Assembly: GCF_042180575.1 (NCBI RefSeq)
Contig: NZ_CP170094.1
Location: 1,912,604 to 1,976,603, forward strand
DNA from: Bernardetia sp. OM2101
Lineage (GTDB): Bacteria; Bacteroidota; Bacteroidia; Cytophagales; Bernardetiaceae
Length of the DNA stretch: 64,000 nt
Direction of reading: 5' to 3'
Of this stretch, positions 3,030 through 57,660 are shown piece after piece (the stretch's first letter is position 1; the number at the start of each line of letters is the position of its first letter). A program made the position numbers and the translations under genes. Below the pieces are notes generated by a model. It saw only the letters and a list, made by a program, of their open reading frames with translations. It had not been told where the DNA came from and made no database searches.

Positions 3030-3449
3030 ATGTTCAAAAAATCAGCACGCCTTCCCAAACACAAAAAATTTGAGTTTCAACCTCGCTTTTATAATCCAGA
3101 TAAAGAAGACTTAGACAAACGCAAACGCTGGGCAGAAGCCGAAGAACGATTAAAACAACTAGAAAAAGAGGAGGTAAAAGAAGAATTAAATGAACTTAGT
3201 AGCTACAATGAAGAACATTCTGTGTTAAGAGGTTCATTTGGAAGAGCAAAAGAAAAACGCAAAACATTATTTGGTAATATGTCAATCGTTGTTTTGATTG
3301 CTTTATTAGGTGGAGCAGCTTATATTTTTATAAATTTGGGGAGTAAAGGAGCTGATTATGGTTGGGAATTATATCTTGTTCTTTCTTTAATTCCACTTTA
3401 TATTTTATTTAGAATTCATGCTAATTCCAAAATTAAAAAAGAAGACTAA
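3030..3449 (+). CDS. Hypothetical protein with charged coiled-coil N-terminal part and one or two C-terminal TM helices
   Basis: ORF with KR/E-rich N-terminal half and hydrophobic C-terminal segment; no family recognised. Confidence 0.45.
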   Translation: MFKKSARLPKHKKFEFQPRFYNPDKEDLDKRKRWAEAEERLKQLEKEEVKEELNELSSYNEEHSVLRGSFGRAKEKRKTLFGNMSIVVLIALLGGAAYIFINLGSKGADYGWELYLVLSLIPLYILFRIHANSKIKKED

Positions 3450-3450
3450 T

Positions 3451-3800
3451 ACCAAAATAAAATCTATTTTTCCCTTTGGATTTCTCGTTCAAGTATTTTG
3501 CTTGGACGCTCTTTTTTGTCAGCATATGCTGACGAAATAGATAGATACAAGATAGAATCTTGCACCAGTGAAGTTTAATATTTATTTTGGTATAAATTTA
3601 GAAAATTCAAAAATAGTTCAGCAAAAAATGGTTTCAAATGTACATTTGAAACCATTTTTTATGACAAGATTATACCAAAATAAAAGTTATTTTTCCCTTT
3701 ACATATTTCTCGTTCAAGTATTTTGCTTGGACGCTCTTTTTTGTCAGTATATGCTGACGAAATAGATAGATACAAGATAGAATCTTGCACCAGTAAAAGA
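3451..3800. repeat. Two direct copies of a roughly 125-bp element, each containing a perfect 16-bp palindrome GTCAGCATATGCTGAC (second copy GTCAGTATATGCTGAC)
   Basis: 3451-3580 and 3672-3800 are near-identical (ataccaaaataaaa..tttttcccttt..tctcgttcaagtattttgcttggacgctcttttttgtcag.atatgctgacgaaatagatagatacaagatagaatcttgcaccagt). Confidence 0.85.
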
Positions 3801-3825
3801 GAAATGCAATATTTATATTACTTAT

Positions 3826-5667: not shown

Positions 5668-8634
5668 TTAATTCAACAGTAAAGCTAATTTATTTGCTTT
5701 TTGTTGTGTTTCTGTTTGTTCTGCAAACTGTTTTTTCAAGTCTTTCAGAATTGATTTTGCACTTGAATCATCTCCGATATTGTGCATCAGTGCTGCCAGT
5801 TCGTAAAGAGCTTCTGAGGCATATTTTGGATTGGCTTGTCTATCATTTCCTAGTTTTGAAAAACCTTCAATGGCTGCATCTACTTGCTGTTGCCCTGCCA
5901 AAATTTTGTTTTCATACAACCGAACAAAGTCATTATTTGAGTATGATTTTTTGTTTCGAATGATAGCCAAATAATCGTTTGCCGTAGCATAATCTTCTTG
6001 CTTACAATAAGTTTTAGTTAGTTTTTCCCACGCTTCTATACGTTTTGCATCATTAGGAGCTGCTTTAGCCAAACTTTTATACTGTGTAATAGCACTATTA
6101 TAATTTTCTCTACCAAATTCAATATCCCCCATATCAGAAAGTGCATCCGTTTGCATTTGTCCTCCTACTCGCTGCAAATTATTTATTGCTTGAGAATTAT
6201 CACCATAATATTGATAACTTTTACCCAAATAATAATAAATACGGTCATAATGAATAGTTCCTGCAATTTCATGAGTAGCAATAATTTTTCTAAAAATAGC
6301 TATTGCACCTGAAAATTCATTGTTTTCATAAAGTTTGAATCCTTTATCAAATTCTTGTTGAATACCATCATTAGTAGTAGGATTTGTAATTGAATTTGAT
6401 GCTGTAGAATTATTGGGGTCATAATTTGAATTATTACGAGCATATATATTTCTAAGTTCATCTATATTTTCTACCACCACACCAAAATCAGGATAATTTT
6501 CTAGTGTATTGAGAGCCATTTTTGCTTTGTCTGTATTCGGATAATTTATAATTAATGCTGTATAGTCATTGATTACATTCTTATTTTCTCCTAATCCATA
6601 CCATGCATTTCCACGACTATATAAGGCTTCTGCTAGTTTTTCACTTTGAGGATAACGCTTAATAAAATCATCCAAAAGAGCTATCACTTGCTTGCGATTG
6701 CCTTGGCTTTCATAAATTTTTGCTTTCATCACTTGCGAATATTGAGCATACAACGAATTTGGCGTTTGCATTACTTTATCAAACTGATGCATGGCTTTTG
6801 AATAATCGTTCTGAACAAAATAAATTTGTCCTAAAGAAAAATTAATATATTCTGTCTCAGAATCTCCCAAAGTCAAGGCTTTCATAAAATTGACTTCGGC
6901 TTCTTTATAATGCTTATTGACAGCATAAATTGTTGCTACACGAGTAAGAGCATCGACAGCTTTTTCTTTTGTAATTCCAGTCGGCGTAGATAAATATTCT
7001 TCCAATAAAACAAGTGCATTTTGTTTGGCAACACTACTATAATTTGCTTTATTAAAATTAATAACTCCCATTCCATATTTTGCATCAGCATAAAAACGAC
7101 TAGAAGTAGGTATTTTTTTATAATAACTTTCAGCTTCTGTTACTTTTTGAGTATGTAAAAATGCTTCTGCTGTATAAAAATTAATAAAGTTTTGAAGTGA
7201 ATCATTGAGTTGCATGTCATTTTTGAGCTGCCCAATGGCTTGATTCATTTCATTGTACGAAGATTGATTAAAAAGTTCTTTGATAGACTGCAAAGCCAAA
7301 TGAACATACATTTTTTTGATTTGGTCTTGATTCTGATTTAGATTCTTCGAATCTCTAACTTTTAAATATGCCATTGCTGTTTGTGCATCTTGGTTAGAAG
7401 CTAGAGCATCAGCAGTAAATAAAATTGCTTCTGACAAATACAGACTTTGAGGAAATTTATTTTCAAACTTTTTACTTTCACTAATCAATACACTATATTC
7501 TTCTGATAAGTACAGATTTTTAAGTTTAGAATAATAGGCTTTTTCAGCTTCTGAAGGATTAAAGGCTGCTAATTCGTCATAAGTAGAAGCAGCTTTTTTG
7601 TAGTTATTTTGTTTTTCATAAATACTTGCCTTCATGAGTAAAATAGGAGAGTAAAATGCTCCACCCGCCAGTGAAGACGTTTCATAATCCAAAAACTCAT
7701 CATAATTTTCTACTGCATAAAGCGTATTGAGATATTGATAAGCAACAGAGTCAGAAAGCTGTTTGCTATTTCGTTTATAACGTCCAAACCATTCATAAGC
7801 CAAATCATATTCTTTGTTGAGGTAAGCACACTGAGCTGCATAATAAAAAAGTTCAACATCGTGTCTTTCATTTGCTATTGAAGACAGAAAATCACTCAAA
7901 CCTTGACATTCTTCCAAATTGTAATAGGCTTTAGCAATCAGTTTGTTTGTACTTTCTGTATATTTTTTGTCTGCCTTTGCTTGATTTAGATTTTCAATAG
8001 CTTGCTCAAAACTTCCTAATTCATAATTGATAAAACCTACATAATAACTAGCTTGAGCATAATATTCATTATTTTTTGATTGCAAAGAGGCAAAAGTACG
8101 TAGAGCTTCTTTTGTTCTTCCAATTTTGAAATACGAATATGCCAAACGAAAATTAATTTCTAATTCATCTTTTTCAGTAGGACGAGATTTTTCTAAAGGT
8201 GAAAAATAATAGGCTGCTCTTCGGTAATTTTCTTCATTGTAGAAAGAGTTGGCTAAAGCAAGTTTGAGATTATCAGCATAGAGCGTTTGTTCATATTTTG
8301 AAATAAATTCAATACTATTTTTTTCTGAGTATGATTTTTTGAGATACAACTCACAAAGTCGTACATAATAAGTCGCTTCTATTTTCTTGTTTAATTCATT
8401 CTGAGGGGAAACAGAAGAGTTTTCATAAGATAAAAAAGATAAAAAAGTTTTTTGAGCGGCCTCATAATGTTGCTGTTCGAAAAGAGTAAGGGCATTTTGG
8501 AAGGTGTTATCTAGTGGAATTGAGCCTGTAAGCGCATGATGTTGGGGAAAAGCATGCGAGAATGGCACAAAAAAAACTAGAAAAAAGTACGCACACATTC
8601 CCACCACATTATTTAGTAGATTTTGGAAAGGCAT
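5668..8634 (-). CDS. Large tetratricopeptide-repeat (TPR) protein
   Basis: 988 aa with many A/Y/L-rich 34-residue TPR-like repeats (e.g. ..AYYNLGEY..A...Y..AL..). Confidence 0.75.
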   Translation of the reverse strand: MPFQNLLNNVVGMCAYFFLVFFVPFSHAFPQHHALTGSIPLDNTFQNALTLFEQQHYEAAQKTFLSFLSYENSSVSPQNELNKKIEATYYVRLCELYLKKSYSEKNSIEFISKYEQTLYADNLKLALANSFYNEENYRRAAYYFSPLEKSRPTEKDELEINFRLAYSYFKIGRTKEALRTFASLQSKNNEYYAQASYYVGFINYELGSFEQAIENLNQAKADKKYTESTNKLIAKAYYNLEECQGLSDFLSSIANERHDVELFYYAAQCAYLNKEYDLAYEWFGRYKRNSKQLSDSVAYQYLNTLYAVENYDEFLDYETSSLAGGAFYSPILLMKASIYEKQNNYKKAASTYDELAAFNPSEAEKAYYSKLKNLYLSEEYSVLISESKKFENKFPQSLYLSEAILFTADALASNQDAQTAMAYLKVRDSKNLNQNQDQIKKMYVHLALQSIKELFNQSSYNEMNQAIGQLKNDMQLNDSLQNFINFYTAEAFLHTQKVTEAESYYKKIPTSSRFYADAKYGMGVINFNKANYSSVAKQNALVLLEEYLSTPTGITKEKAVDALTRVATIYAVNKHYKEAEVNFMKALTLGDSETEYINFSLGQIYFVQNDYSKAMHQFDKVMQTPNSLYAQYSQVMKAKIYESQGNRKQVIALLDDFIKRYPQSEKLAEALYSRGNAWYGLGENKNVINDYTALIINYPNTDKAKMALNTLENYPDFGVVVENIDELRNIYARNNSNYDPNNSTASNSITNPTTNDGIQQEFDKGFKLYENNEFSGAIAIFRKIIATHEIAGTIHYDRIYYYLGKSYQYYGDNSQAINNLQRVGGQMQTDALSDMGDIEFGRENYNSAITQYKSLAKAAPNDAKRIEAWEKLTKTYCKQEDYATANDYLAIIRNKKSYSNNDFVRLYENKILAGQQQVDAAIEGFSKLGNDRQANPKYASEALYELAALMHNIGDDSSAKSILKDLKKQFAEQTETQQKANKLALLLN

Positions 8635-11087: not shown

Positions 11088-12170
11088 ATGAAAAACTACG
11101 TAAAATTCAAGCCTAAAGACAAAAGTTTATTCTTTCCGACCTTAAAAAAGAGAGTAGATGATTATTTTATTACCAACAATATTAGTAAAAATGCAAATAC
11201 AGGTATGGTAATCAAGACGATTATTTTACTATCTGCCTATATTTTACCTTTTATTTATATTTTAGCTTACAACCCTAGTTTTATCATTTCTACTGTTTTA
11301 TGGTCAATAATGGGACTAGGTATTGCAGGAATTGGGATGAGTGTGATGCATGATGCAAATCATGGTTCGTATTCTCGTTCGGAATGGATAAACAAACTCT
11401 TAGGCAATACACTTACTTTGGTAGGTGGCTCGGTCGATAATTGGAAAGTACAACATAATTTATTGCACCATACTTTTACAAATGTAGTTCATCAAGACGA
11501 TGATATTTCTGATAAATTTGTTTTGCGTTTTTCTCCCCATACAGAAGTAAAGTGGTTTCACAAATATCAATATATTTATGCTTTCTTTTTTTATGGATTA
11601 CAAACTATTTATTGGGTTTTTGTAAAGGATTTTCTTCAATTTAAGCGTTATGTCATAAAAGGAGAAAAAAAATGGTTTACATTTATCAAATTAATTTTAT
11701 CCAAGATTATATATACTTTTGTAATCATATTACTTCCTATTGTATTTTTTGATATTCCTGTTTTGAATGTAGCCATAGGTTTTTTGGTCATGCAATTTGT
11801 AGCAGGATTAGTCCTAACAGTTATTTTTCAGTTGGCGCATACTGTTGAAGGAACTACACATCCATTGCCTAACGAAAAAAATGAAATTACACAAGATTGG
11901 GCAATCCATCAAATGAACACAACCGTAGATTTTGCACCAAAAAACAAGCTGCTCTCGTGGTATATTGGAGGTCTGAATTTTCAAGTAGAACATCATTTAT
12001 TTACCAAAATTTGTCATATTCATTATCCTGAAATCTCTAAAATAGTACAACAAACGGCTGCTGAATTTGATATTCCTTATTTAATGAATGAAAGTTTTTC
12101 TGATGCACTTATTGCTCATATAAACGCACTCAAAAGATTTGGCAAAGAAGAAAGTGGATTGTTGATTTAA
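11088..12170 (+). CDS. Membrane fatty-acid desaturase (three histidine boxes)
   Basis: HDANHG, HNLLHH and QVEHHLF histidine boxes with hydrophobic segments. Confidence 0.85.
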   Translation: MKNYVKFKPKDKSLFFPTLKKRVDDYFITNNISKNANTGMVIKTIILLSAYILPFIYILAYNPSFIISTVLWSIMGLGIAGIGMSVMHDANHGSYSRSEWINKLLGNTLTLVGGSVDNWKVQHNLLHHTFTNVVHQDDDISDKFVLRFSPHTEVKWFHKYQYIYAFFFYGLQTIYWVFVKDFLQFKRYVIKGEKKWFTFIKLILSKIIYTFVIILLPIVFFDIPVLNVAIGFLVMQFVAGLVLTVIFQLAHTVEGTTHPLPNEKNEITQDWAIHQMNTTVDFAPKNKLLSWYIGGLNFQVEHHLFTKICHIHYPEISKIVQQTAAEFDIPYLMNESFSDALIAHINALKRFGKEESGLLI

Positions 12171-12300: not shown

Positions 12301-12702
12301 TTATAAAACCTGCTCTTTAAATATCGTTTCTAATGCTTTTTTGGGGTCACTATCTAATCCAGAGTAGGTTTTAGAACTTTGAATGATTGTGCTTCTGCTG
12401 GCTGTTAGCCATCCAAAACGTTCGGATAATTCTAATTGACCTATTTTTCCACTGGCAGAATTTCCTTCACAAACCAGTTTCCAAGCCTTTAAATAATCAT
12501 TCAATAATTCTAATTCTATTTCACATGAAAATGTCTTTAATTTTGTTTCATTAATAGTGTATTTGATGTCTAAAAACTTTTTTCGTTTACAAAAAACGAT
12601 AACACCTACATTAAAGAATTCTTCTCGTTCTACTTTTGGAACAATACGAATGATGGCGTATTTGAAGGTAAATTTGTCTTGTATATTTTGCCTATCTTGC
12701 AT
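12301..12702 (-). CDS. DUF3037 domain protein
   Basis: 133-aa protein with ...YAIIRIVPKVEREEFFNVGVIVFC... typical of DUF3037; overlaps the upstream HipA-like gene by 11 nt, suggesting an operon. Confidence 0.55.
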   Translation of the reverse strand: MQDRQNIQDKFTFKYAIIRIVPKVEREEFFNVGVIVFCKRKKFLDIKYTINETKLKTFSCEIELELLNDYLKAWKLVCEGNSASGKIGQLELSERFGWLTASRSTIIQSSKTYSGLDSDPKKALETIFKEQVL

Positions 12703-13477
12703 AATTAGCTTCTTTAACTAATAAGTCAATATTAGAGAGTTTGGTAGTTATAAATTCGATATAGGCTTCTCTCATTTCTTGTGGACTTAAACTGATAGAT
12801 TCACTCATCAACCAATCTTCTGGAATAGTCGATACAATATCAATAATTACATCTTTACTTAATAACTGCTTAATTTCGGTTGCAGCCTCAGTTAGTTTTT
12901 CGGCTTTACTTAAAAGAACGTGGTCTTTAATGAGTGGGAATGTTCTTGTCAGATGACTTTTCCAATTATCCCAGTTGTGATGAAAATAAAAACTAGCTCC
13001 ATTGTCGATTATCCATAATTCATTATTCCAATGTAATAGGTTTGTATTTTTATCTGTTCGGTCGATATTACTGATAATACTATCCAAAATTACTACTTTA
13101 GAAGCAATCATTTTATCTACATCATTTACTAAAGGGTCGTAGGTAATAGCAGACGATAAAAACTGCAAACCAAGGTTTAGACCAACACTAAATTTGAGTA
13201 AATCTTGAATTTCTTCATCAGGCTGACTCTTACTAAATGATTCATCAAGATTCATAAATACAAGTTCAGGAACTTTCAAGCCTATTGCTCGTGCCATTTC
13301 GCCACCAATAAATTCTGCGATTAAAGCCATTTTTCCTTGTCCTGCACCTCTAAATTTTAGGACATACAAAAAATCATCATCACCTTTGACAATAGCAGGA
13401 AGCGAACCACCTTCTCGTAAAGGTTGCAAATATTGAATAACATCTATGGTTCGAATATCTAATTTTTTCATCAACAA
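12692..13477 (-). CDS. HipA-like kinase-fold protein (DUF3037 partner)
   Basis: Catalytic-loop-like NIDRTDKN and metal-binding IDNG motifs resembling HipA/PI3-4K-like kinases; G-rich loop KFRGAGQGKMA near the N-terminus. Confidence 0.5.
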   Translation of the reverse strand: MLMKKLDIRTIDVIQYLQPLREGGSLPAIVKGDDDFLYVLKFRGAGQGKMALIAEFIGGEMARAIGLKVPELVFMNLDESFSKSQPDEEIQDLLKFSVGLNLGLQFLSSAITYDPLVNDVDKMIASKVVILDSIISNIDRTDKNTNLLHWNNELWIIDNGASFYFHHNWDNWKSHLTRTFPLIKDHVLLSKAEKLTEAATEIKQLLSKDVIIDIVSTIPEDWLMSESISLSPQEMREAYIEFITTKLSNIDLLVKEANYAR

Positions 13478-24464: not shown

Positions 24465-25313
24465 ATGAAAATACCTAAGTACGATAAATTTATAATTCCA
24501 ACTTTGAAAGCATTAAAAAAACTTGGTGGTTCAGGTTCTATTGATGAAATTAATGAAACTGTGTATTTACTTGCAGAATTATCAGAAGAAATTTTGGAAG
24601 TTCAACACGATGAAAATGGCGTGCAAAGTGAGGTTGATTATCGTTTAGCTTGGGCAAGAACATACTTAAAGAAATATGGAGTTATAGAAAATTCTTCTCG
24701 TGGTGTTTGGTCATTAATAGATAATGAACTAGCCCCAGAAACTTTCAATTCTGATGAAATTGTAAAAAAAGTAAGAGAACTGACTTATCAAAGTAGAAAA
24801 GAGAAAAATACAAACATAAAAAACGAAGCAAAAGAAGAGGTAGAAGAAAATATAGACTGGAAAGAAAATTTAATATCAACTATCCTACAAATCGAACCCT
24901 CAGCTTTTGAAAGGCTTTGTCAAAGGATTCTTAGAGAAAGTGGTTTTGTGCAAGTGGAAGTAACTGGAAAAAGTGGAGATGGAGGAATTGATGGTAAAGG
25001 TATTGTTAGAATGAATGGTTTCTTGAGTTTTCACGTATTCTTTCAATCTAAGAGATATAAAGGCTCTGTTGGTTCGGGTGATGTGAGAGATTTCAGAGGT
25101 GCAATGCAAGGAAGAGCAGACAAAGGTCTTTTTATAACAACAGGAAATTTCACAAGAGAAGCTGTAAAAGAAGCCACTAGAGATGGTGCGCCTCCTATTG
25201 ATTTAATTGATGGAGATTTATTATGTGATAAATTGAAGGAGCTTTCATTAGGGGTTAAAACAGAACTTATAGAGGAGGTTTCAATTAATACAGAGTGGTT
25301 TAAGAGAATATGA
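24465..25313 (+). CDS. Mrr-like type IV restriction endonuclease (N-terminal winged helix plus Mrr_cat domain)
   Basis: MKIPKYDKFIIPTLKALKKLGGSGSIDEI N-terminus and C-terminal catalytic region FERLCQRILRESGF..GKSGDGGIDG. Confidence 0.75.
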   Translation: MKIPKYDKFIIPTLKALKKLGGSGSIDEINETVYLLAELSEEILEVQHDENGVQSEVDYRLAWARTYLKKYGVIENSSRGVWSLIDNELAPETFNSDEIVKKVRELTYQSRKEKNTNIKNEAKEEVEENIDWKENLISTILQIEPSAFERLCQRILRESGFVQVEVTGKSGDGGIDGKGIVRMNGFLSFHVFFQSKRYKGSVGSGDVRDFRGAMQGRADKGLFITTGNFTREAVKEATRDGAPPIDLIDGDLLCDKLKELSLGVKTELIEEVSINTEWFKRI

Positions 25314-25485: not shown

Positions 25486-26655
25486 ATGATAGATATTTCA
25501 AAAATTCCTTCGCCTTGTTTTGTTTTGGAAGAAAAACTCCTTCGCCGAAATTTAGAAATTTTGGATAGTGTACAAAAGCAAACAGGAGCGCATATTATTT
25601 GTGCTTTAAAAGGCTTTTCGATGTTTAGTACATTTCCTTTGGTGCGCCAGTATTTACATGGTTGTACATCTAGTTCGCTTTATGAAGCTCGTTTGGCTTT
25701 TGAGGAATTTGGACAAGAAGTTCACGCCTACGCACCTGCTTATACAGATAAAGAATTTGACGAAATAATGACGTATGTAAATCATATTAGTTTCAATTCT
25801 CTTTCTCAATATGAACGTTTCAAAGATAAATTAGCCAAAAACGAAGCAAAAACAAGCAAAAAAATATCAGCAGGTTTGCGTATCAATCCCGAATATTCAG
25901 AAGTAGAAACCGATTTATACAATCCTTGTGTGCCAGGTTCCAGGTTCGGACTCACTTTTGATAAAATAGGCGAAAACCTTCCAGAAGGAATTGAAGGATT
26001 ACATTTTCATACACTTTGTGAGCAAGGTTCGGATACATTAGAGCGCACACTTATTCATGTAGAAGAAAAATTTGGACATCTTTTGCATCAAGCAAAATGG
26101 CTTAATATGGGTGGTGGGCATCATATCACTAGAAAAGATTATGATGTAGAGCTTTTAGTAAAACTACTCAATAGAATAAAAGAAAAATATAATGTTCAAA
26201 TTATCCTAGAACCAGGGGAAGCTATCGGTTGGCAAACAGGTTATTTGGTGGCTTCTGTTCAAGATGTGATGGATAGTAGAGGGATTGAGGTCGCTATTTT
26301 AGATGTTTCTTTCACGGCTCACATGCCAGACTGTTTGGAAATGCCCTATAAACCTAAAATTTGGAATGCAGAAGATGCTACTACAAGTTCGAAGAGTGAA
26401 GGAAAATACGTTTATCGTTTTGGTGGCTCTACGTGTTTGGCAGGAGATTTTATCGGAATGGGAGATTATGCCTTTGAAAATGAATTGAAAATTAATGATA
26501 AAATAGTTTTTGATGATATGATTCATTACACAATGGTCAAAACTTCTACTTTTAATGGCGTTCCACATCCAAGTATTGGCATTTGGAAAGAAAGCAATGA
26601 ATTTCAATTAGTTAGAGAAATTGGTTATGAAATGTTTAAGAATAAATTGTCTTAG
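25486..26655 (+). CDS. nspC: Carboxynorspermidine/carboxyspermidine decarboxylase
   Basis: 389-aa PLP-fold decarboxylase with an NspC-type N-terminus (..PSPCFVLEEKLLRRNLEIL..). Confidence 0.7.
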   Translation: MIDISKIPSPCFVLEEKLLRRNLEILDSVQKQTGAHIICALKGFSMFSTFPLVRQYLHGCTSSSLYEARLAFEEFGQEVHAYAPAYTDKEFDEIMTYVNHISFNSLSQYERFKDKLAKNEAKTSKKISAGLRINPEYSEVETDLYNPCVPGSRFGLTFDKIGENLPEGIEGLHFHTLCEQGSDTLERTLIHVEEKFGHLLHQAKWLNMGGGHHITRKDYDVELLVKLLNRIKEKYNVQIILEPGEAIGWQTGYLVASVQDVMDSRGIEVAILDVSFTAHMPDCLEMPYKPKIWNAEDATTSSKSEGKYVYRFGGSTCLAGDFIGMGDYAFENELKINDKIVFDDMIHYTMVKTSTFNGVPHPSIGIWKESNEFQLVREIGYEMFKNKLS

Positions 26656-26717
26656 AACAAAAATAATTAAAGGTACGTTTATTTAAAAAATAAACGTACT
26701 CACAAATCAGAAAAAAT

Positions 26718-26933
26718 ATGAAAGACCAAGAAATATACTCAAAGCTATTTTTACTTAACTCTGACAACTTAAAACAAGAGTTATTAAATTTTATGGATTA
26801 TTTACTCACAAAACAGTTTTCAGAAACTAAGACAAAGAAAACTCCTCAATTTGGTTGTGCAAAAGGAAAATTCAGAATGAGTGATGATTTTGATGAACCT
26901 TTAGACCATTTTGACGAATATATGCCCAATTAA
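26718..26933 (+). CDS. Putative antitoxin (DUF2281-like) of the PIN toxin
   Basis: 71-aa protein immediately upstream of and co-directional with the PIN gene; C-terminal ..DDFDEPLDHFDEYM.. typical of DUF2281 antitoxins. Confidence 0.55.
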   Translation: MKDQEIYSKLFLLNSDNLKQELLNFMDYLLTKQFSETKTKKTPQFGCAKGKFRMSDDFDEPLDHFDEYMPN

Positions 26934-26945
26934 TCAAAAAATTGA

Positions 26946-27341
26946 ATGAATATTTTGCTAGATACACATGCTTTAATTTGGTTTTTTGAAGGCGATAAAA
27001 AATTAAGTAATAAGGCAAGAAAAACTATACAAGAACCGAAGAATACTATATTTGTGAGTGTAGTAAGTTTTTGGGAAATTGTTATTAAAATAAGTATAGA
27101 CAAATTGGAGATGGATTTGTCAATGGAAGAACTACAAAAATTAGTTTGGGAAAATGGAATACAAATCCTTCCTATAAAAATAGAACATACATTTTTGCTG
27201 AGAAATTTACCGTATTTTCATAAAGACCCATTTGATAGATTACTTTTTGTACAAGCATCATCTGAGAACATGAATTTGGTAAGTTGTGATGTTATTTTTG
27301 ATGATTACTTAGATAGCAGTTCAATTAGTAGAATTTGGTAG
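26946..27341 (+). CDS. PIN-domain toxin (VapC-like)
   Basis: MNILLDTHALIWFFEGDKKLS N-terminus with conserved Asp; 131 aa. Confidence 0.8.
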   Translation: MNILLDTHALIWFFEGDKKLSNKARKTIQEPKNTIFVSVVSFWEIVIKISIDKLEMDLSMEELQKLVWENGIQILPIKIEHTFLLRNLPYFHKDPFDRLLFVQASSENMNLVSCDVIFDDYLDSSSISRIW

Positions 27342-27366
27342 AACAAATTAAAAATCAATGATTAAA

Positions 27367-27519
27367 ATCGTTTTTGATGATATGATTCATTATACAATGG
27401 TCAAAACTTCTACTTTTAATGGAGTTTCTCATCCAAGTATCGGAATTTGGAAAGAAAGTAATGAATTTCAATTAGTTCGAGAAATTGGTTATGAAATGTT
27501 TAAGAATAAACTTTCTTAG
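27367..27519 (+). pseudogene. Orphan duplicate of the nspC 3' end (right-hand direct repeat of the cassette)
   Basis: Translates to ..VFDDMIHYTMVKTSTFNGVSHPSIGIWKESNEFQLVREIGYEMFKNKLS*, near-identical to the true nspC C-terminus; no upstream coding context. Confidence 0.8.
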
Positions 27520-27577
27520 AAAGAATCTGAAACACACTCTTTACAAAAAAAACTTTTTTCACAGAGTGTGTTTTTCC

Positions 27578-27859
27578 TTACTCACAGTCCAAATCCCTAA
27601 GTGTTTCTTGAAAAGAAGAAATATCAGCACTACTATAACAACCTGAAATATATGCTTCTAAAGCAGCTTTATAGGCATTACAGTTTGCAACTGAATTTGG
27701 GTCAGAAGAATAAGCTTGGGCAGTAACAGTAATATCATTGGCTAAAGAAATACAATCATTATTATTATCTTCATCTCTTTCACAAGAAGTCAAAGTACTT
27801 GAAAAAACTACTATTGTTACAATAAAGAATATTTTAGAAAAAAATTGAGGTAACTTCAT
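27578..27859 (-). CDS. Small secreted Cys-containing hypothetical protein
   Basis: Signal peptide with lipobox-like LTSC; 93 aa. Confidence 0.4.
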   Translation of the reverse strand: MKLPQFFSKIFFIVTIVVFSSTLTSCERDEDNNNDCISLANDITVTAQAYSSDPNSVANCNAYKAALEAYISGCYSSADISSFQETLRDLDCE

Positions 27860-30880: not shown

Positions 30881-30948
30881 TTTCTATCCTCAACGACGGT
30901 CTTGACCTCGTTGACGGTTTCTAGTTCACTTATTTAATCTAAAACACT

Positions 30949-31437
30949 ATGAAATTTATTATTCCTATATTTATATTATTTCTTTGCTTTTCTTGTGATT
31001 CGCCTTCAAAAAGTCACGCAAGTACAGACGAATCTGATAAAAAAGTAGAAGAAAAAAATGAAGAACAAAAGAAAGTCAAAAAAGCCCCTATCCAAATAGG
31101 AACAGATGAAGTTTTATTTAAAAGTTTTGGAACTGAACCTTTTTGGAGTGCAGAAGTTCGTAAAAGTGGTATTTTGTTTTCAAAATATGGATTAGATTCT
31201 ATAACTTTCGAATATGTAGAACCGAAAGCAGCAGAAAGCAGACCCATAGAATATTTTATGACTTATTTTTTGGAAGACCAAGACGGAAAACAAGCGCAAT
31301 TAGTCGTCAAAAAAGGAGAAGAGTGTGCTTGTTCAGACGGAATGTCGGACAAAGATTATGGTTATCACACTTTCTTTTTATATGACAATCAAATGTTTGA
31401 AGGATGTGGAGAGAAATCAGTTACCAGTGAGGAGTAA
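30949..31437 (+). CDS. Hypothetical lipoprotein
   Basis: Signal peptide with FLCFSCDS lipobox; no confident domain. Confidence 0.45.
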   Translation: MKFIIPIFILFLCFSCDSPSKSHASTDESDKKVEEKNEEQKKVKKAPIQIGTDEVLFKSFGTEPFWSAEVRKSGILFSKYGLDSITFEYVEPKAAESRPIEYFMTYFLEDQDGKQAQLVVKKGEECACSDGMSDKDYGYHTFFLYDNQMFEGCGEKSVTSEE

Positions 31438-31558
31438 TTAGTTACCAGTTAATTTCAAATGAAATTTCAAAAATGTATTGGTATTTATCTTCATTTTATC
31501 ATAAAAATCATATTAATCACTCGCTAATAAGTTACGGTATTTTAATAATTTAAGAAAA

Positions 31559-31930
31559 ATGGCAAAAATTCAAAACACATTCAAACATATTGAGGAAGAA
31601 AAAGAAATCAAAATTCCTACAAAAAGAGGCTTTTGGAGAAATCTAGCTGAGTGGGATTTTACCATTGACCAAGATTTTTTATTCCGAATAATGCCTTATG
31701 TTTTGTATGTTTCTTTTTTTGGAATTATCTATATTGCAAATCGTCATTATACAGAACGAGTAGTTAGAGAAGTTACTCAGCTTCGTCAAGAAGTAGAAGA
31801 ATATCAAATCGATTATCATGCTTTACAAACTCGTTATGTATATGATAGCAGAAGACAAGTAGTAGCTAAAAAAGCTGAACAATTAGGCTTAAAAGAAAGA
31901 GAAAAACCATTAGTAAGAATATCGGAATAG
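31559..31930 (+). CDS. ftsL: Putative cell-division protein FtsL (single TM, immediately upstream of ftsI)
   Basis: Small bitopic protein with one TM helix and coiled-coil region in the expected dcw-cluster position. Confidence 0.45.
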   Translation: MAKIQNTFKHIEEEKEIKIPTKRGFWRNLAEWDFTIDQDFLFRIMPYVLYVSFFGIIYIANRHYTERVVREVTQLRQEVEEYQIDYHALQTRYVYDSRRQVVAKKAEQLGLKEREKPLVRISE

Positions 31931-32070
31931 CCAATTACGAATTGTCAATTACGAATTACGATAAACTACTATTTCTATGCTAAATTTAGTAGTCGTAATT
32001 TTTAATTCATAGTTCGTAATTCGTAATCCGTAATTCGTAATTCGTAATCCGTAATTCGTAATTCGTAATT
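31931..32070. repeat. Array of TTCGTAA/TCCGTAA heptamer repeats with internal dyad symmetry between ftsL and ftsI
   Basis: ..caattacgaattacgataaactacta..tagtagtcgtaatttttaattc..gttcgtaattcgtaatccgtaattcgtaattcgtaatccgtaattcgtaattcgtaattg. Confidence 0.85.
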
Positions 32071-34241: not shown

Positions 34242-35234
34242 ATGAAAAAATTAAAGACAATAGATTTATTTGCAGGAATTGGAGGATTACGTTTAGCTTT
34301 TAAAAAATATAATTGTCAAAATGTATTTACTTCAGAATGGGATAAAGATGCTCAAAAAATGTATGAAGCAAATTTTGATGAAAAACCCTTTGGAGATATT
34401 ACTCAAATTCTGCCACAAGAAATACCAAATCATGATATTTTATTAGCAGGGTTTCCTTGTCAGCCTTTTTCAGTAATTGGAAATAGAGAAGGTTTTTCGG
34501 ATACTAGAGGAACTCTTTTTTTTAATATTGAAGAAATTCTCAAAGAAAAAAAACCTTATTCATTTGTCTTAGAAAATGTAAAACAGTTACGTTCACATGA
34601 TAAAGGGCGAACTTTTAAAGTTATTTTACAAAAACTAGAAGAGTTAGGATATTTTGTACATCATACAGTTTTAAATGCTTTAGATTTTGGACTTCCACAA
34701 AAAAGAGAGCGTACAATTATTGTAGGTTTTAGAGAAAACATAAACTTCCAGTTTCCCAAGCCTTTAGGAGAATACCCACCACTTTCTGAATTTTTGACAC
34801 CTGAAAATGAAGTAGATAAAAAACTTTTTGCTTCTCAAAAAATTTTAGATAAAAGACAAGCAAGATTAAAAAAAGAACCCTTTTTTCCCTCTATTTGGCA
34901 CGAAAACAAAGGTGGAAATATTTCAGTTTTGCCTTATTCTTGTGCTTTACGTGCAGGAGGTTCTTACAATTATTTATTAGTAAATGGAAATAGAAGACTT
35001 TCAGAAAGAGAACTTTTACGTTTACAAGGCTTTCCAGAAGATTTTAAAGTTGTGGTTAGTTATACAGCAATGCGAAAACTGACAGGAAATAGTGTCGCCA
35101 TTCCAGTTTTTGAAGCTGTTGCAGAAAAAATGATGGAGGCAATGGAAAGCAAAAAAATTCTTCCAATTACAAGACAACTTACTATTTTAGAATCTAATTA
35201 TGAATATTCAAATAGCAATACAGGCACTAGATAA
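34242..35234 (+). CDS. DNA cytosine-5 methyltransferase
   Basis: Motif I DLFAGIGG, motif IV GFPCQPFS, motif VI ENV, motif VIII QKRER. Confidence 0.9.
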   Translation: MKKLKTIDLFAGIGGLRLAFKKYNCQNVFTSEWDKDAQKMYEANFDEKPFGDITQILPQEIPNHDILLAGFPCQPFSVIGNREGFSDTRGTLFFNIEEILKEKKPYSFVLENVKQLRSHDKGRTFKVILQKLEELGYFVHHTVLNALDFGLPQKRERTIIVGFRENINFQFPKPLGEYPPLSEFLTPENEVDKKLFASQKILDKRQARLKKEPFFPSIWHENKGGNISVLPYSCALRAGGSYNYLLVNGNRRLSERELLRLQGFPEDFKVVVSYTAMRKLTGNSVAIPVFEAVAEKMMEAMESKKILPITRQLTILESNYEYSNSNTGTR

Positions 35235-35642
35235 AGTTATCCAAAAATCAAGAGTTCATTTGTATAAACCTATACAAATTGCTGAAATTCTTTATAGGGA
35301 TAGAGTAGAAAGAGATATTGACCTTTCTAATTTAGAAACTTATCGCAATCCTTCTAAAAAATGGCGAGACATAATTTGTATGCAGTTTCTGGGTAGAGTC
35401 AGTACTTCATCAGCTCGTTATCAAGATGATATTTTCAATCAAAATGCTATTCCTCCTGCTTTATTAGAGATATTGGGAAAAGAAAACAGAGCGAAAAATG
35501 GAATTATAGAAGCACATATTTACACACAATTTTCAAAGCGTTTTACTCAAATGAATAGTGCTTTAGATTATTGCAAATTACATGATAGAAGCAATTTTCA
35601 GCTCACAGAGTTTTTAGATTTATTTTGGAAGGAAAAAGGTTT
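35200..35642 (+). pseudogene. 5' portion of a putative cognate restriction endonuclease gene, truncated by IS insertion (the last residues of the ORF are encoded by the IS inverted repeat)
   Basis: Overlaps the methyltransferase stop by 35 nt (typical R-M coupling); the ORF runs into the IS left inverted repeat at 35643. Confidence 0.4.
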
Positions 35643-36556
35643 AGAGCCTGTTCGAGTTTAGTTTAAAAAAAAAGAACATCAGATTTTTTTATTAGTTAAG
35701 TAATTGATTTTCAGTTACTAATTAAAATATCAATTTCTATGTTTACTAATGAATATTTATCTGATGCTCTTTGGCAATATATGAAAAAATTTATACCTTC
35801 TTCGTATTTGAAAAGAAAACGCAAACACAGTTTGTATAATTTATTTTCTGGTCTATTCTATCTTACTCGTTCAGGTAGCAGTTGGCGTTTGCTTCCTAGT
35901 AGTTATGGTGTTCCTTGGAGTAGCTTGTATGATTATTTCAGTAAGTGGCAGCAGACAGGTTGGTATAAAAAGCTGTTAGATAAGCTTGTTAGAAGGGAAC
36001 GTATAGCACAAGGTAGAAATCCAAGACCTTCTTTGGGTTGTATAGACTCTCAAAGTGTTCAGAGTGTTTATGGAGGAGAGGCGATAGGAGTGGACGGCTA
36101 TAAGCTCAAAAAAGGACGGAAACGGCATATTTTAGTAGATACGCAAGGAAATTTACTAGAATTAGAGATTAGTCCAGCCAATCAAGCCGATGTAAATCAA
36201 CTTGCTTATTTGTCGTATTTAGCTCAGTTTAGAGGCAGACCATTTTTCAAAATTCTTGCTGATGCAGGGTATAGAAGTGGGGCTTTGGCTACTGAAATAT
36301 TTAGTCAAACAGGAGTGCAAGTGGAAATTGTCAATAGTCCAAGAAGAGAAAAAAAAGATGATAAAGCATTTGTTCCACAACCCAAAAGATGGGTTGTAGA
36401 AAGAACATTTGCGTGGCTCAATCAGAACCGAAGACTAAAAGTAGATTATGAAAAAACAAGAAAATCTGCAAAGGCATTTGTGTATTTAGCTATGATTTTG
36501 AATCTCATAAACAAAGGAGCTAAAAGAAATAAAAAATAAAAACTCGAACAGGCTCT
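35643..36556 (+). mobile_element. IS5-family (ISL2/IS1031-like) insertion sequence, about 914 bp, with 17-bp terminal inverted repeats
   Basis: agagcctgttcgagttt (35643-35659) and aaactcgaacaggctct (36540-36556) are perfect inverted repeats flanking the transposase ORF. Confidence 0.8.
35739..36539 (+). CDS. IS5-family DDE transposase
   Basis: DDE_Tnp_1-type motifs including ..WVVERTFAWLNQNRRL.. near the C-terminus. Confidence 0.85.
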   Translation: MFTNEYLSDALWQYMKKFIPSSYLKRKRKHSLYNLFSGLFYLTRSGSSWRLLPSSYGVPWSSLYDYFSKWQQTGWYKKLLDKLVRRERIAQGRNPRPSLGCIDSQSVQSVYGGEAIGVDGYKLKKGRKRHILVDTQGNLLELEISPANQADVNQLAYLSYLAQFRGRPFFKILADAGYRSGALATEIFSQTGVQVEIVNSPRREKKDDKAFVPQPKRWVVERTFAWLNQNRRLKVDYEKTRKSAKAFVYLAMILNLINKGAKRNKK

Positions 36557-51958: not shown

Positions 51959-51994
51959 TTTGAATTTATAAAAAAACAATTCTATTCTTATCCT

Positions 51995-52072
51995 TTATAA
52001 AACTCTCTACAAAATCAAAAAAAATTATGTAGAGAGTTTATTTTTGAGTAAATTTTGGAGAAAAATAAAATC
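51995..52072. repeat. Hairpin-containing element (ctctctacaaaatcaaaaaaaattatgtagagag plus T-rich tail), left direct repeat of the 52-kb cassette
   Basis: Near-identical second copy at 52578-52652; looks like the terminator of the upstream lipoprotein gene. Confidence 0.8.
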
Positions 52073-52074
52073 TT

Positions 52075-52464
52075 ATGAGTAATCAATGGAAAATAGACGA
52101 AAAATTAGCTAAAAAAGTCTATGCAAGAATAGAAAATTATACTGACGAAGAAAAACAAATTCTTTGGGATAAAATTAAAAATGAACTTCAAGAATATGAT
52201 TCTTTTACAGGAACTATTTTTGTAAAAGCTCCCTTTGGTGTTTTTTTGGATATTGGGAAAGAATTTCCTGCTTTGTTAAGAGTTGTAGCTATGAAGAATC
52301 TTAATGGTAGAAATTATCCCAATTACATGAATGATGAAATATGTAATCTAGGAGCAAAAATAAAAGTCTATTTTGTGGGGATGAGTGATGATGTAAAAGA
52401 TTTTATTGTTACAGAATATACAAAAGAACATATAGAATCTAATAAAGACCGTATTTTTACCTAA
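52075..52464 (+). CDS. Hypothetical 129-aa protein carried on a cassette flanked by duplicated terminator repeats
   Basis: ORF between the two repeat copies; no family recognised. Confidence 0.5.
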   Translation: MSNQWKIDEKLAKKVYARIENYTDEEKQILWDKIKNELQEYDSFTGTIFVKAPFGVFLDIGKEFPALLRVVAMKNLNGRNYPNYMNDEICNLGAKIKVYFVGMSDDVKDFIVTEYTKEHIESNKDRIFT

Positions 52465-52577
52465 AAAATAAAAATATTTTCTTCAAAAAATCGTATTTCT
52501 ACATTGAGAAATAACCCAAAACGTTTCGAATGTTTTAGCAAGGGGCATCGTCTATATGAGCATTTGGCGTTGGGTTT

Positions 52578-52652
52578 TATTCAAAACTCTCTACAAAATC
52601 AAAAAATTATGTAGAGAGTTTATTTTTGAGTAAATTTTGGGGAAAATAAATC
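52578..52652. repeat. Second copy of the hairpin/terminator element (right direct repeat), abutting the IS1 left inverted repeat
   Basis: aaactctctacaaaatcaaaaaattatgtagagagtttatttttgagtaaattttgg matches 52000-52058; followed directly by the IS1 inverted repeat at 52653. Confidence 0.8.
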
Positions 52653-53513
52653 GGTAGTGTTCTAAATATAAGGATGTTTTTTTTGAAAAAATGGCAATGA
52701 GTTGTGATATTTGTAAAATGCAAACTAAACAAACTCACATTTGCCCTCATTGCCAAGGCAAATATACCGTAAAAAACGGTCAAACTTATTACAATAAGCA
52801 AAATTACAAGTGTAAAACTTGTAAACGCCAATTTGTAGAACGTCCTTTACCTGAAAGTAAGGAAGCTATTATTAGTTCTTACCAAGATGAGTTAGTAGCT
52901 CAACTTCTATTAGAACGTATTGCTTTAAGAGGCATTAGTCGCCTTTTTAAAAAAAGTGTCAGTTGGGTTACTTCTCGTATGAAACTCTGCTATGAGCGAA
53001 TAAAAGAAGATTTGCCTATTGGTCGTTTAGCTTCAGCAGATATAGATTTATATCTGGTAGAAGCCGACGAGTTATGGAGTTTAGCTACGCTGAGCTCGCA
53101 AGCTCGGTTTGTAGGTGCTAAAGATTGTCCAGAATGGATCTGGTTAGCTATCGAAAGACGTACAGGATTGGTAGTTGGATTTCATAGTGGAGGTAGAGAT
53201 CAAGAGGGTGCATTAGGACTTTATTTGAGTATAGATAAGAAATTAAGAGAAAAAGCCATTGTTTATGCTGATGATTTTGCTTCTTATGGAACTGTATTTC
53301 CTAAAAAACAACTCCGACAAGAAGGTAAAAAAGAAACTACTAAAATTGAGCGTTTTAATAACACAATCAGACAGAGAAATAGCCCATTAGTTAGGCTTTC
53401 TTTATCCTTTTCTAAAAAATGGGAGAATCATTATAATTCAATCAAATATTTTATAGTAAATTACAACAATGAAATTATTGCATAGAATCCATCCTTATAA
53501 AAAGAACACCACC
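52653..53513 (+). mobile_element. IS1-family insertion sequence (about 861 bp) with 24-bp inverted repeats
   Basis: Left IR GGTAGTGTTCTAAATATAAGGATG; right end CATCCTTATAAAAAGAACACCACC (reverse complement GGTGGTGTTCTTTTTATAAGGATG); IS1-type GGT(A/G)GTG termini. Confidence 0.8.
52691..53485 (+). CDS. IS1-family transposase (single-ORF InsA zinc-finger fused to InsB-like)
   Basis: N-terminal C4 zinc finger (CDIC..CPHC, CKTC) and C-terminal ..ERFNNTIRQRNSPLVRLSLSFSKKWENH.. matching the IS1 InsB tail ([24 protein letters not shown]..). Confidence 0.8.
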   Translation: MAMSCDICKMQTKQTHICPHCQGKYTVKNGQTYYNKQNYKCKTCKRQFVERPLPESKEAIISSYQDELVAQLLLERIALRGISRLFKKSVSWVTSRMKLCYERIKEDLPIGRLASADIDLYLVEADELWSLATLSSQARFVGAKDCPEWIWLAIERRTGLVVGFHSGGRDQEGALGLYLSIDKKLREKAIVYADDFASYGTVFPKKQLRQEGKKETTKIERFNNTIRQRNSPLVRLSLSFSKKWENHYNSIKYFIVNYNNEIIA

Positions 53514-55047: not shown

Positions 55048-55198
55048 ATTACGAATTTTCAATTACGACCTGCTAAAGCAGCGCAGCTAATTACGAATTG
55101 AAATACAAAAATAAACCTAGTATATTTATCATATATAAAAACAAAAGCTTATTGAGTATTCATTATTTTACTCTCGTAATTTTTAATTCGTAATTGAT
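55048..55198. repeat. TTCGTAA-family repeat region ending in the conserved motif cgtaatttttaattcgtaattga directly before the start codon
   Basis: aattacgaattttcaattacgacctgctaaagcagcgcagctaattacgaattg ... ctcgtaatttttaattcgtaattgatATG. Confidence 0.8.
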
Positions 55199-55552
55199 AT
55201 GAAAGAAGACAACATTATTCAGAAAAAGAGCTTTGATTTTGCTATCCGAATAGTGAATGCTTATAAGTTTTTGATTTCTAAACAAGAATATGTTTTGTCA
55301 AAACAATTATTACGTAGTGGAACTTCAATAGGTGCAAACGTAGAAGAGGCTATAGGTGGATATTCTAGGACAGATTTTGGTTTTAAATTATCCATTGCAT
55401 ACAAAGAAGCTAGAGAAACACTTTATTGGATTAAACTCTTAGAAGCAACTGACTATCTTTCAGAAGAAATGAGTAAAAGTCTGATTCAAGATGCAGAAGA
55501 AATCTGCAAAATAATTGGTAAAATACAAACTTCTTTAAAGAAAAATCAGTAA
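55199..55552 (+). CDS. Four-helix-bundle protein (23S rRNA intervening-sequence protein / Avd-like family)
   Basis: ..KKSFDFAIRIVNAYKFL...LLRSGTSIGANVEEA.. is the hallmark of the TIGR02436-type four-helix-bundle family. Confidence 0.75.
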   Translation: MKEDNIIQKKSFDFAIRIVNAYKFLISKQEYVLSKQLLRSGTSIGANVEEAIGGYSRTDFGFKLSIAYKEARETLYWIKLLEATDYLSEEMSKSLIQDAEEICKIIGKIQTSLKKNQ

Positions 55553-55559
55553 TAAATAA

Positions 55560-55640
55560 AACAGCGAAGCTAGTTAAGCTATAGAATTTCGTAATTAAAA
55601 ATTCGTAATCCGTAATTGACCAATTCGTAATTAAATTAAG
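55560..55640. repeat. TTCGTAA-family repeat region (cgtaattaaaaattcgtaatccgtaattgaccaattcgtaatt)
   Basis: Read directly; variant of the conserved roughly 30-nt motif. Confidence 0.8.
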
Positions 55641-56883: not shown

Positions 56884-56974
56884 TATATTTACCGAACGGT
56901 TCGCTTTGAGTGAACTGTTCGGTATTTTTTTGTATCTTAGATAAAGAGTTTTATAACTTAAAAGATAAAATAAA

Positions 56975-57229
56975 TTGATTATGGCAAAAATAGAACTACT
57001 ATTAAAAGACCTTGAAAACCTAAATCGTGATGAAATTTGGGTTGTCTGGGAATTTCTACAACAAAAAATAAAATCTTATACTCTAAATCCTGCTCAATCC
57101 GTAGAAAAAGAAGAAACAAAAAGACTACAATTTGATGATTTTTCGTTTGGACGTACTAGAGAAATTTTGAAAGGAAAAAATCTGAATTTGAGTGATGCTG
57201 TTATTGAAGAAAGGAGAAGTTACGAATGA
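56975..57229 (+). CDS. Putative antitoxin of the PIN toxin
   Basis: 84-aa ORF overlapping the PIN gene start by 4 nt (ATGA coupling). Confidence 0.5.
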   Translation: MIMAKIELLLKDLENLNRDEIWVVWEFLQQKIKSYTLNPAQSVEKEETKRLQFDDFSFGRTREILKGKNLNLSDAVIEERRSYE

Positions 57230-57651: not shown

Positions 57652-57660
57652 AAAAATGAC

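Follow-up and report, generated by a model that had tools for sequence, protein, structure and literature searches.

A predicted VapBC toxin-antitoxin cassette between two divergent copies of the nspC 3′ end in Bernardetia sp. OM2101

Introduction

How do toxin-antitoxin (TA) modules enter chromosomes, and persist there, when no mobile-element genes accompany them? This is an acknowledged open question, and the mechanisms of TA integration "have remained poorly characterized" (PMC13617665). A locus in Bernardetia sp. OM2101 (Bacteroidota, Bernardetiaceae) bears directly on it. In a 64-kb stretch of this genome (hereafter the window, to which coordinates refer unless another locus is named; G+C 31.5%), a small TA pair lies downstream of nspC, the carboxynorspermidine decarboxylase gene, and is bracketed by two copies of the end of nspC itself. 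A preliminary description of this DNA interpreted the arrangement as an insertion, made either by a single crossover with a circular cassette bearing a copy of the gene end or by a site-directed mechanism that required no integrase and preserved the host open reading frame (ORF), and suggested that the cassette had brought its copy of the gene end from another lineage. Here we describe the locus, compare it with empty and occupied sites in relatives and with similar layouts at other genes, and weigh the mechanisms that could have produced it.

The cassette and its flanking repeats

The nspC gene is intact (25486-26655, plus strand, 389 aa). Its ORF scores 540.6 bits against the NCBIfam profile TIGR01047 (cut-off 409), and its product is identical to Bernardetia sp. 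OM2101 protein P0247. A repeat search returned a direct repeat of 159 nt at 93% identity (26499-26657 and 27363-27521), which extends to 175/176 nt at 92% identity when one 1-bp indel is allowed (26483-26657 and 27346-27521); the gapped alignment places one extra T in the second copy. Copy 1 (plus strand) is the functional 3′ end of nspC, i.e., the last ~57 codons, the stop codon and 2 nt, with an in-frame coding part consisting of the last 51 codons plus stop. Copy 2, also on the plus strand, is a displaced 3′ fragment that carries a 1-bp insertion near 27362 and a Pro to Ser change.

Only a hairpin, an antitoxin gene and a toxin gene occupy the 0.7 kb of unique DNA between the copies. The perfect 13-bp hairpin, between the nspC stop and the antitoxin gene (26672-26700, plus strand; dG −12.7 kcal/mol, z −7.75), lacks a U-tract and is kept, with a G-U-compatible change, in the occupied site of a relative (metagenome contig L108, see below); its role may be that of a TA operator or of a terminator. 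The vapB-type antitoxin gene (DUF2281, 71 aa; 26718-26933, plus strand) matches PF10047 at 2.8e-17 and the TA_VapB equivalog NF050009 of NCBIfam at 73.7 bits (cut-off 60). It is followed in the same orientation, after a 12-nt gap, by the vapC-type PIN toxin gene (131 aa; 26946-27341, plus strand), which matches PF01850 over residues 3-120 at 1.2e-15. The toxin is 100% identical to WP_375562500.1, annotated as VapC in Bernardetia sp. OM2101, and its translation holds the putative acidic active-site residues D6, E44, D97 (in a DPFDR motif) and D115. With a PIN toxin, an upstream antitoxin and these residues, the pair is predicted to be a type II TA system of the VapBC class.

Copy 2 begins 0-4 nt past the PIN stop codon, lies in the vapC reading frame, and contains an ATG-initiated ORF of 53 aa in the NspC frame (27358-27519). 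It is followed by the native bidirectional terminator hairpin (27529-27574; dG −15.3 kcal/mol, z −3.85), shared by nspC and a convergent 93-aa ORF (27578-27859, minus strand) that synteny identifies as the native right-hand neighbour of nspC.

The repeat search, alignment and profile matches thus bear out the preliminary description of a duplicated nspC end around a DUF2281/PIN pair. The repeat coordinates it gave (26503-26655 and 27367-27519) are right for the in-frame coding part, and the homology begins ~20 nt further left. It had also named a genome-wide repeat family as a finding that would speak against insertion; within the 64-kb window the nspC-end repeat occurs as a single pair, with no further copies.

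Empty and occupied sites in relatives

A look-up of the exact window NspC sequence returned no record, and close relatives were reached through members of the NspC 90% cluster. In B. litoralis DSM 6794 (L084), CP147017 (L087), CP147012 (L088) and CP147020 (L090) the gene order is recN, a variable gene, nspC, a small convergent ORF and the M1 peptidase gene. Each has a single nspC end, with the bidirectional terminator ~10-15 nt downstream in the three CP-numbered sequences and preceded by a longer spacer in B. litoralis DSM 6794. Convergent ORFs of 92-99 aa follow nspC in all four and in the contigs L100 and L101. The cleanest empty site is L100, the sole contig that a 23-nt invariant stretch recovered from metagenome DNA: after its nspC stop come the AAACACACTCT...AGAGTGTGTTT hairpin and the convergent ORF. 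The hairpin at 27529-27574 of the window is homologous to this one, and the right flank after copy 2 matches L100 with 78.7% identity over 371 nt. The nspC site is also empty in L101-L107, which represent another lineage.

One occupied site was found. L108, a metagenome contig, encodes the closest NspC (12 aa differences) and has, after the nspC stop, the same spacer, hairpin and DUF2281 gene as the window, the gene with 90.3% nt identity. L108 departs from the window at the start of the PIN gene and the contig ends 56 nt on; this 56-nt tail had no match among the sequences gathered for comparison. Further afield, a scan of reference genomes with NspC gave best matches of only ~65% identity, and the resulting 80 Bacteroidota loci served as a background set in which a second nspC end never occurred (0/80). 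Nor did any of the related Bernardetia loci compared hold a larger element at nspC.

The cassette is therefore an insertion downstream of nspC, and its occupancy is polymorphic among Bernardetia lineages, at least six of which, besides OM2101, have the empty site. The comparison of related genomes that the preliminary description had proposed thus yielded both empty and occupied sites, the single-copy empty sites sharing the context that follows copy 2; since occupancy is polymorphic, relatives do not show the same duplication without insert polymorphism, the other finding that had been named as speaking against insertion. The integrase-free and ORF-preserving character proposed for the event agrees with an insert reduced to hairpin, vapB and vapC, an intact nspC and the absence of a recombinase among the ORFs scanned.

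That scan compared ~45 window ORFs with Pfam, NCBIfam and PADLOC. No integrase, resolvase or site-specific recombinase was found in the insert or in these ORFs, the rest of the genome not having been searched, and the recombinase expected within an integrative element or cis-mobilizable element (CIME) is accordingly lacking from both. The only mobility genes were IS1, ISL3 and IS4/5 transposase genes, the closest to the nspC locus lying ~8 kb away. Plasmid and phage collections yielded no vehicle carrying the unit, the only hit being a 68-nt match to a cyanobacterial DUF2281 gene. Two further classes of element were rejected. An integron gene cassette is contradicted by flanking repeats that are specific to each host gene (nspC here, mnmA and a DUF4348 gene at the loci described below) and are therefore not attC-like, with no shared attC and no IntI among the scanned ORFs. 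A diversity-generating retroelement is contradicted by the mismatches, of which only 2-3 out of 11 involve an A in either copy, and by the lack of an adjacent reverse transcriptase (RT); the single RT of the window, which belongs to the DRT9 defence type, is encoded ~32 kb from the nspC locus.

The slot on the other side of nspC is variable as well. Between recN and nspC the window carries a gene for an Mrr-type (type IV) restriction endonuclease (24465-25313), also present in B. litoralis DSM 6794; unrelated small ORFs take its place in L087, L088, L090, L108 and another metagenome relative, L081.

Divergence of the two copies

The two copies differ at 11 of 153 coding bases (7.2%). These differences fall in nine codons, eight of them synonymous and one Pro to Ser, so that 10 of the 11 base changes are silent. 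The distance lies inside the between-species range for this segment (7-18 differences, 4.6-11.8%), and the copies are not each other's nearest relatives. The 153-nt coding segment has 27.7 synonymous and 125.3 nonsynonymous sites. Had the gene end been duplicated in place and the distal copy then drifted neutrally, ~64% of changes would be expected to be non-silent. Because the changes are almost all silent, this history is rejected (at most 1 of 11 non-silent, P=2.9e-4; P=6.7e-6 with the mnmA locus, 0 of 4, added), also under a conservative null (P=0.042 for nspC, P=0.0084 for nspC and mnmA). It is also implausible that ordinary allelic recombination replaced one copy later on, since the differences extend almost to both repeat edges, reaching 6-8 nt from the right edge and ~10 nt from the left.

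Copy 2 has only two unique substitutions and one indel. Its Pro to Ser change affects a residue that is Pro in 15/15 NspC orthologues compared and is unique to this copy; together with the 1-bp insertion, this marks copy 2 as a recent, decaying relic. The cassette is only 90.3% identical to that of L108 while copy 2 is young, and the linkage between cassette and gene end is therefore much older than the relic.

Judged from these substitution patterns, at least one of the copies must have come recently from another lineage, where it belonged to a functional nspC. The earlier claim that the cassette brought its copy from elsewhere gains from this interspecies-level, silent-biased divergence, while the allele distances conflict on which copy was imported. 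Copy 1 is joined to the cassette, and its nearest allele is that of the cassette-bearing L108 (9/173 differences), with which it shares an otherwise unique T at 26493. Copy 2 is joined to the native right flank, and L081 is nearer to it than to copy 1 (8 vs 11 differences); L100, by contrast, is nearer to copy 1 (12 vs 15 differences), as are L101 and L108. A first reading of copy 2 as native was withdrawn after the alleles of L100, L101 and L108 gave this contradictory signal.

The relatives also carry traces of recombination within nspC. Upstream of the gene, L108 and L081 share 96.5% identity over 711 nt, and only one position separates them in its first 134 nt; beyond nspC position ~134 the difference rises to ~8% as far as the stop codon, and the downstream content is unrelated. 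No further jump in divergence occurs in the last 176 nt of the gene (10/176 vs 74/994 differences, P=0.53). This pattern places a recombination breakpoint between these two metagenome lineages inside nspC, at about gene position 134, with the remainder of the gene exchanged along with the DNA beyond it, and shows nspC acting as a homology arm for the exchange of downstream cargo. The window nspC is itself mosaic relative to its relatives.

Recurrence at other genes

Gene-end repeats around a TA module are also found at other genes, where the TA families differ. The second window example involves mnmA, which encodes tRNA 2-thiouridylase (55681-56883, plus strand; PF03054/PF20259/PF20258); the gene is intact and its product 98% identical to the Bernardetia MnmA cluster. 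The last 25 codons of mnmA form repeat copy 1 (56808-56882, plus strand), followed by the native terminator (56890-56924; dG −24.1 kcal/mol and a U7 tract), whose hairpin is kept in B. litoralis (here L097) and in Bernardetia Wsw4-3y2 (L099). Next come an antitoxin-like ORF (56981-57229) and, overlapping it, the gene for a 141-aa PIN toxin (57226-57651), together spanning 56981-57651 on the plus strand. This toxin matches PF01850 at 3.2e-11 and is unrelated to the PIN toxin at the nspC locus. Copy 2 (57660-57734, plus strand; 96% identical) starts 8 nt past the PIN stop, in the PIN frame. The two 75-nt copies differ at four positions, three of them synonymous and the fourth a TAA/TAG exchange; copy 2 has no in-frame start codon, yet all its changes are silent.

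In Bernardetia Wsw4-3y2 the left repeat boundary at mnmA is the same as in the window, and the repeat is 132 nt long, covering the gene end and native terminator. Its cassette (7129-7690 of that locus) holds the antitoxin homologue alone, the toxin being gone and the distal copy lying 16 nt past the antitoxin stop; it is an eroded, toxin-less version of the window mnmA cassette. The 132-nt repeats differ at 7/75 coding positions (two missense) but only 1/57 terminator positions, an uneven distribution suggestive of gene conversion in the hairpin part or of a mosaic origin. L098, the closest relative, and L097 have other content downstream of mnmA.

A third gene is involved in a Flexibacter/Bernardetiaceae metagenome-assembled genome, represented by three independent assemblies (L091-L093). 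Here the 3′ end of a DUF4348 gene is repeated over 176 nt, and the two copies enclose a 104-aa ORF and a TumE-family toxin gene. Adjoining this locus in L091, in a context without nspC, is an 82%-identical relative of the window vapBC, whose homology to the window is limited to the TA operon and stops at the toxin stop codon. An assembly artefact as the source of the nspC layout was ruled out, given copies 7% apart and the same layout in independent assemblies (L099; L091, L092 and L093).

Shorter repeats (~50-76 nt) of terminator regions surround single non-TA ORFs in the window, L090 and L087. In the window, a possible third instance (51994-52650, plus strand) consists of a 129-aa ORF with no family match (52075-52464) between direct repeats of ~76 nt that include the terminator hairpin of the CpeT/PKD gene upstream; next is an IS1 transposase gene (52691-53485). 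In L090 (10736-11367) a 162-aa ORF between the M1 peptidase gene and ftsL is bracketed by 50-nt repeats. The corresponding site in L084 (~11417-11530) is empty and has one repeat copy, and the window carries an ORF of the L090 type with only the right-hand repeat copy (30881-31560). Overall, short-range repeats of at least 60 nt number four in the 64-kb window vs three in 907 kb of other Bacteroidota loci.

Downstream of mnmA lies a variable hotspot (56884-61305), with different content in each of L097, L098 and L099. In the window it contains the antitoxin/PIN cassette, an ISL3 element (57806-58993), a full-length gene for the DRT9 anti-phage RT (59225-60730; PADLOC 2.7e-210) and then a conserved CcbP-like gene. 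The RT was considered as integration machinery for the neighbouring cassette and rejected: it is a full-length defence RT, and so cargo.

Junction regularities

In three loci out of three, the distal gene-end copy lies 0-8 nt past the toxin stop and in the toxin frame (chance 0.037). These are the two window loci (27339-27380 and 57649-57700) and the L091 locus (6180-6250, minus strand). At nspC, the 1-bp insertion in copy 2 creates a TAA in the toxin frame and brings an ATG into register with the rest of the NspC codons.

Short sequence matches also occur at the joints. AACAAATT is found at the nspC distal junction and at the left edges of both mnmA repeats (56813 and 57665), i.e., at three of its nine plus-strand sites in the window, and CAACAAA at the left edge of the L091 repeat; this (C)AACAAA(TT) motif was chosen post hoc, with p ~0.01 per locus. 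A 9-nt identity, TAGAACAAA, is shared by the nspC stop (26653-26661) and the vapC stop (27339-27347). The recurrence of AACAAATT, CAACAAA and TAGAACAAA could be a junction motif or chance. At the nspC joint there is in addition an imperfect 8/11 match, TAGAACAAATT vs GAAAA(C/T)GAATT, which is compatible with microhomology.

Origin of the cassette

The explanation towards which we lean, with caution, is that integrase-free recombination anchored in the 3′ end of nspC fixed the VapBC cassette, including a variant by failed allelic replacement that is taken up below. On one side, homology within nspC would have joined DNA from another Bernardetia lineage to the OM2101 chromosome; on the other, the joint linking the toxin stop to the gene-end fragment would have been non-homologous or based on microhomology. 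With linear DNA this would be a one-sided homologous plus illegitimate event; in an alternative topology, a circle bearing one nspC-end segment would integrate by a Campbell-type single crossover. The outcome would be that nspC stays intact and is followed by the cassette and by another, heteroallelic copy of its 3′ end, now a decaying relic. Addiction to the TA pair may shield the cassette against deletion between its own flanking repeats, a suggested role that would explain why TA modules persist in this layout; the longest runs of perfect identity between copies are 32 and 36 nt, and toxin-less derivatives exist, as in Bernardetia Wsw4-3y2.

Several points weigh against this explanation. 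Simple homologous recombination predicts neither joints adjacent to stop codons, nor placement in the toxin frame, nor the (C)AACAAA(TT) motif. The phylogenetic signal in 173 nt, with L081 and L100 in conflict, cannot tell which copy is foreign. Neither a circular form nor a donor allele was seen. Furthermore, the recombinase screen covered only part of the window ORFs.

A rival explanation is a site-specific recombinase acting in trans, which we regard as unlikely while giving it some weight. The cassette would then be a non-autonomous (CIME- or satellite-like) element whose attachment site lies in the target 3′ end and which supplies a replacement end as prophages do. Such an element would account for both junctions lying at one point of the target gene, with the insert starting exactly where the homology starts, for the restored host ORF, for distal copies that abut the toxin stop in frame at three loci, for AACAAATT or CAACAAA at the junctions (three of the nine plus-strand AACAAATT sites in the window), and for the mnmA left repeat boundary shared by L099 and the window. 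However, no integrase was found in the insert or the scanned window ORFs, and the repeats are gene-specific, with no convincing common core beyond the short post hoc motif at p ~0.01 per locus. Repeat lengths moreover vary from 50 to 176 nt, and the cargo comprises unrelated TA families as well as non-TA ORFs.

The stop-adjacent joints, shared frame and recurring motif do hint at a process more specific than simple recombination. We therefore raise, as a speculation that we think rather unlikely to hold, a dedicated and hitherto undescribed integrase-free route in the Bernardetiaceae that places small cassettes, TA modules above all, at gene 3′ ends. Its rules would be that the cassette is co-oriented with the host gene, that the distal copy lies 0-8 nt past the last cassette stop and in frame, and possibly that a (C)AACAAA motif is present. 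If true, the mobile units using such a route would form a new class, for which the defining trait is the borrowed end of a gene and not a recombinase site.

Integrase-free recombination at nspC could also have run in the opposite direction, although we find this particular history doubtful. The lineage would already have had nspC-vapBC, cassette-free donor DNA would have recombined on the right flank, and the survivors would be those that kept the antitoxin, with the incoming gene end joined immediately behind the TA pair; copy 2 would then be the import and copy 1 native, and the locus the scar of a failed allelic replacement. An old linkage of cassette and nspC (90.3% to L108) beside a young copy 2 fits this sequence of events, as does the closeness of L100 and L108 to copy 1, and the toxin-less L099 cassette, with its distal copy 16 nt past the antitoxin stop, fits retention of the antitoxin being what mattered. 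Against it, the illegitimate joint is still unexplained, joints would be expected to scatter within the toxin gene and not to fall at stop codons, and copy 2 resembles L100 least, while it is L100 that has the downstream flank closest to that of the window. With one homologous and one illegitimate side, it is a sub-variant of the explanation we favour and not a separate class.

TA modules typically stabilise integrative elements. The cassette might be what is left of a prophage, an integrative and conjugative element or an island that had integrated into the nspC 3′ end and was deleted down to its TA module, leaving attL and attR. The gene-end duplication resembles the attL/attR of elements that integrate into coding genes, and streamlining of TA-linked loci to TA-only islets has been proposed (Belot et al. 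2026, PMC13617665). We nevertheless hold this to be improbable: three independent loci would have decayed to exactly an antitoxin and a toxin with the distal repeat 0-8 nt past the stop, other genes of such an element have left no relic, the vapBC relative in L091 (82% identical) shares the TA operon only, with homology ending at the toxin stop, and no larger element occupies nspC in related loci.

A true long target duplication in situ is the model proposed for restriction-modification (RM) insertions (PMC2853133). Here it would have been followed by divergence, possibly with selection on copy 2 for a 53-aa peptide expressed from it, which would suit the ATG-initiated ORF in the NspC frame (27358-27519). 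It is very improbable for this locus, since the excess of silent changes rules against neutral divergence, the copies are not sisters, mnmA copy 2 has silent changes only and yet no in-frame start, and copy 2 of nspC has lost a Pro that is invariant in 15 orthologues.

Comparison with known systems

The closest described phenomenon is the insertion with long target duplication of RM systems (Nobusato et al. 2000 Gene 259:99; Furuta, Abe and Kobayashi 2010, PMC2853133). In those cases the insert is a small selfish unit of addictive genes, and the direct repeats that flank it measure 45-420 bp, are single-copy in the related empty site and come without mobility genes; some overlap the 3′ end of the upstream gene, and left-right identities down to ~93% are tabulated. 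The mechanism is unknown and the host species are mostly competent (PMC2853133). The nspC locus likewise has repeats longer than 30 bp (175/176 nt), one-copy empty sites and no mobility gene in or next to the insert. It differs in its cargo, VapBC in place of RM genes, in its host, a member of the Bacteroidota (Bernardetiaceae), and in repeats that are heteroallelic and not copies of the recipient's own target; with their interspecies-level, silent-biased divergence, they are therefore not a simple target duplication. Our literature search found no extension of long target duplication to TA modules, and the locus extends to TA systems a phenomenon known only for RM systems.

In E. coli, e14 and phage 21 reportedly integrate in the 3′ end of icd, the element supplying the replacement end. 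As at nspC, the gene is kept intact by an alternative version of its last ~50 codons with mostly silent differences, and the displaced native end persists as a pseudogene fragment on the far side. Unlike these elements, which are many kb long and have their own integrase, the insert here is 0.7 kb of unique DNA with vapBC only. Polymorphic toxins of the Rhs/CdiA type are said to undergo displacement of their C-terminal ends, which is similar in that an incoming gene fragment with its cargo recombines in the shared part and the former end is left further downstream, orphaned, behind a partial repeat of the gene. There, however, the new end is a different toxin domain, whereas at nspC it is the same protein end and the cargo is a separate operon.

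Integration through a single homologous segment has counterparts in laboratory observations reported for Streptococcus and Acinetobacter, namely Campbell-type insertion-duplication, as in pneumococci, and homology-facilitated illegitimate recombination in natural transformation. In these, one homologous segment is enough for linked foreign DNA to integrate, and a circular donor duplicates that segment around the insert. Both share single-homology integration with the explanation we favour, but neither predicts the stop-adjacent, in-frame junctions seen here.

For TA islets, a model has been proposed in which they integrate by homologous recombination at flanking core genes, with two arms (Belot et al. 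2026, PMC13617665). Like these islets, the present loci are TA-only, have no mobile-element genes, are polymorphic among close relatives and frequently lose the toxin (here L099, possibly L108). Unlike the two-arm model, which involves no duplication (PMC13617665), the event at nspC was one-sided and left a heteroallelic gene-end scar. The case differs from all the systems compared in combining TA cargo, heteroallelic repeats and no recombinase in the insert or its scanned surroundings. The scar, a heteroallelic duplication of the upstream gene end, marks recombination that would be anchored in a housekeeping gene and involve DNA of another lineage while preserving the host gene. It also yields a rule for genome-wide searches, i.e., short-range direct repeats of which the first copy overlaps the stop codon of a gene. 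The recurrence of the layout and the regularities of its junctions make the long-standing question of TA mobility directly testable.

Other features of the window

A near-tandem duplication of ~147 nt (3442-3819; 94-98% identical, spacing 223) begins at the stop codon of a 139-aa ORF (3030-3449). No ORF of at least 50 aa lies wholly between its copies, and a 65-aa ORF (3568-3765) spans the spacer into copy 2.

Three further regions are of note. At 34242-36539 a C-5 cytosine methylase gene (34242-35234) is followed by a 153-aa ORF, whose match to a type II restriction enzyme profile of 350 positions is confined to the first 151, and by an IS4/5 transposase gene (35739-36539); the restriction gene looks truncated by the insertion sequence and the methylase orphaned. 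The minus strand at 12301-13477 carries a match to the PADLOC candidate defence pair PDC-M66A/B, made up of the gene for a HipA_2-like kinase (261 aa) and a neighbouring ORF of 133 aa. Lastly, a 23S-rRNA-IVP (four-helix-bundle) gene (55199-55552), present in L098 and absent from L097 and L099, is flanked by repeats rich in the heptamer TCGTAAT (55160-55616), which also occur between genes at 31993-32069 and 61625-61659.

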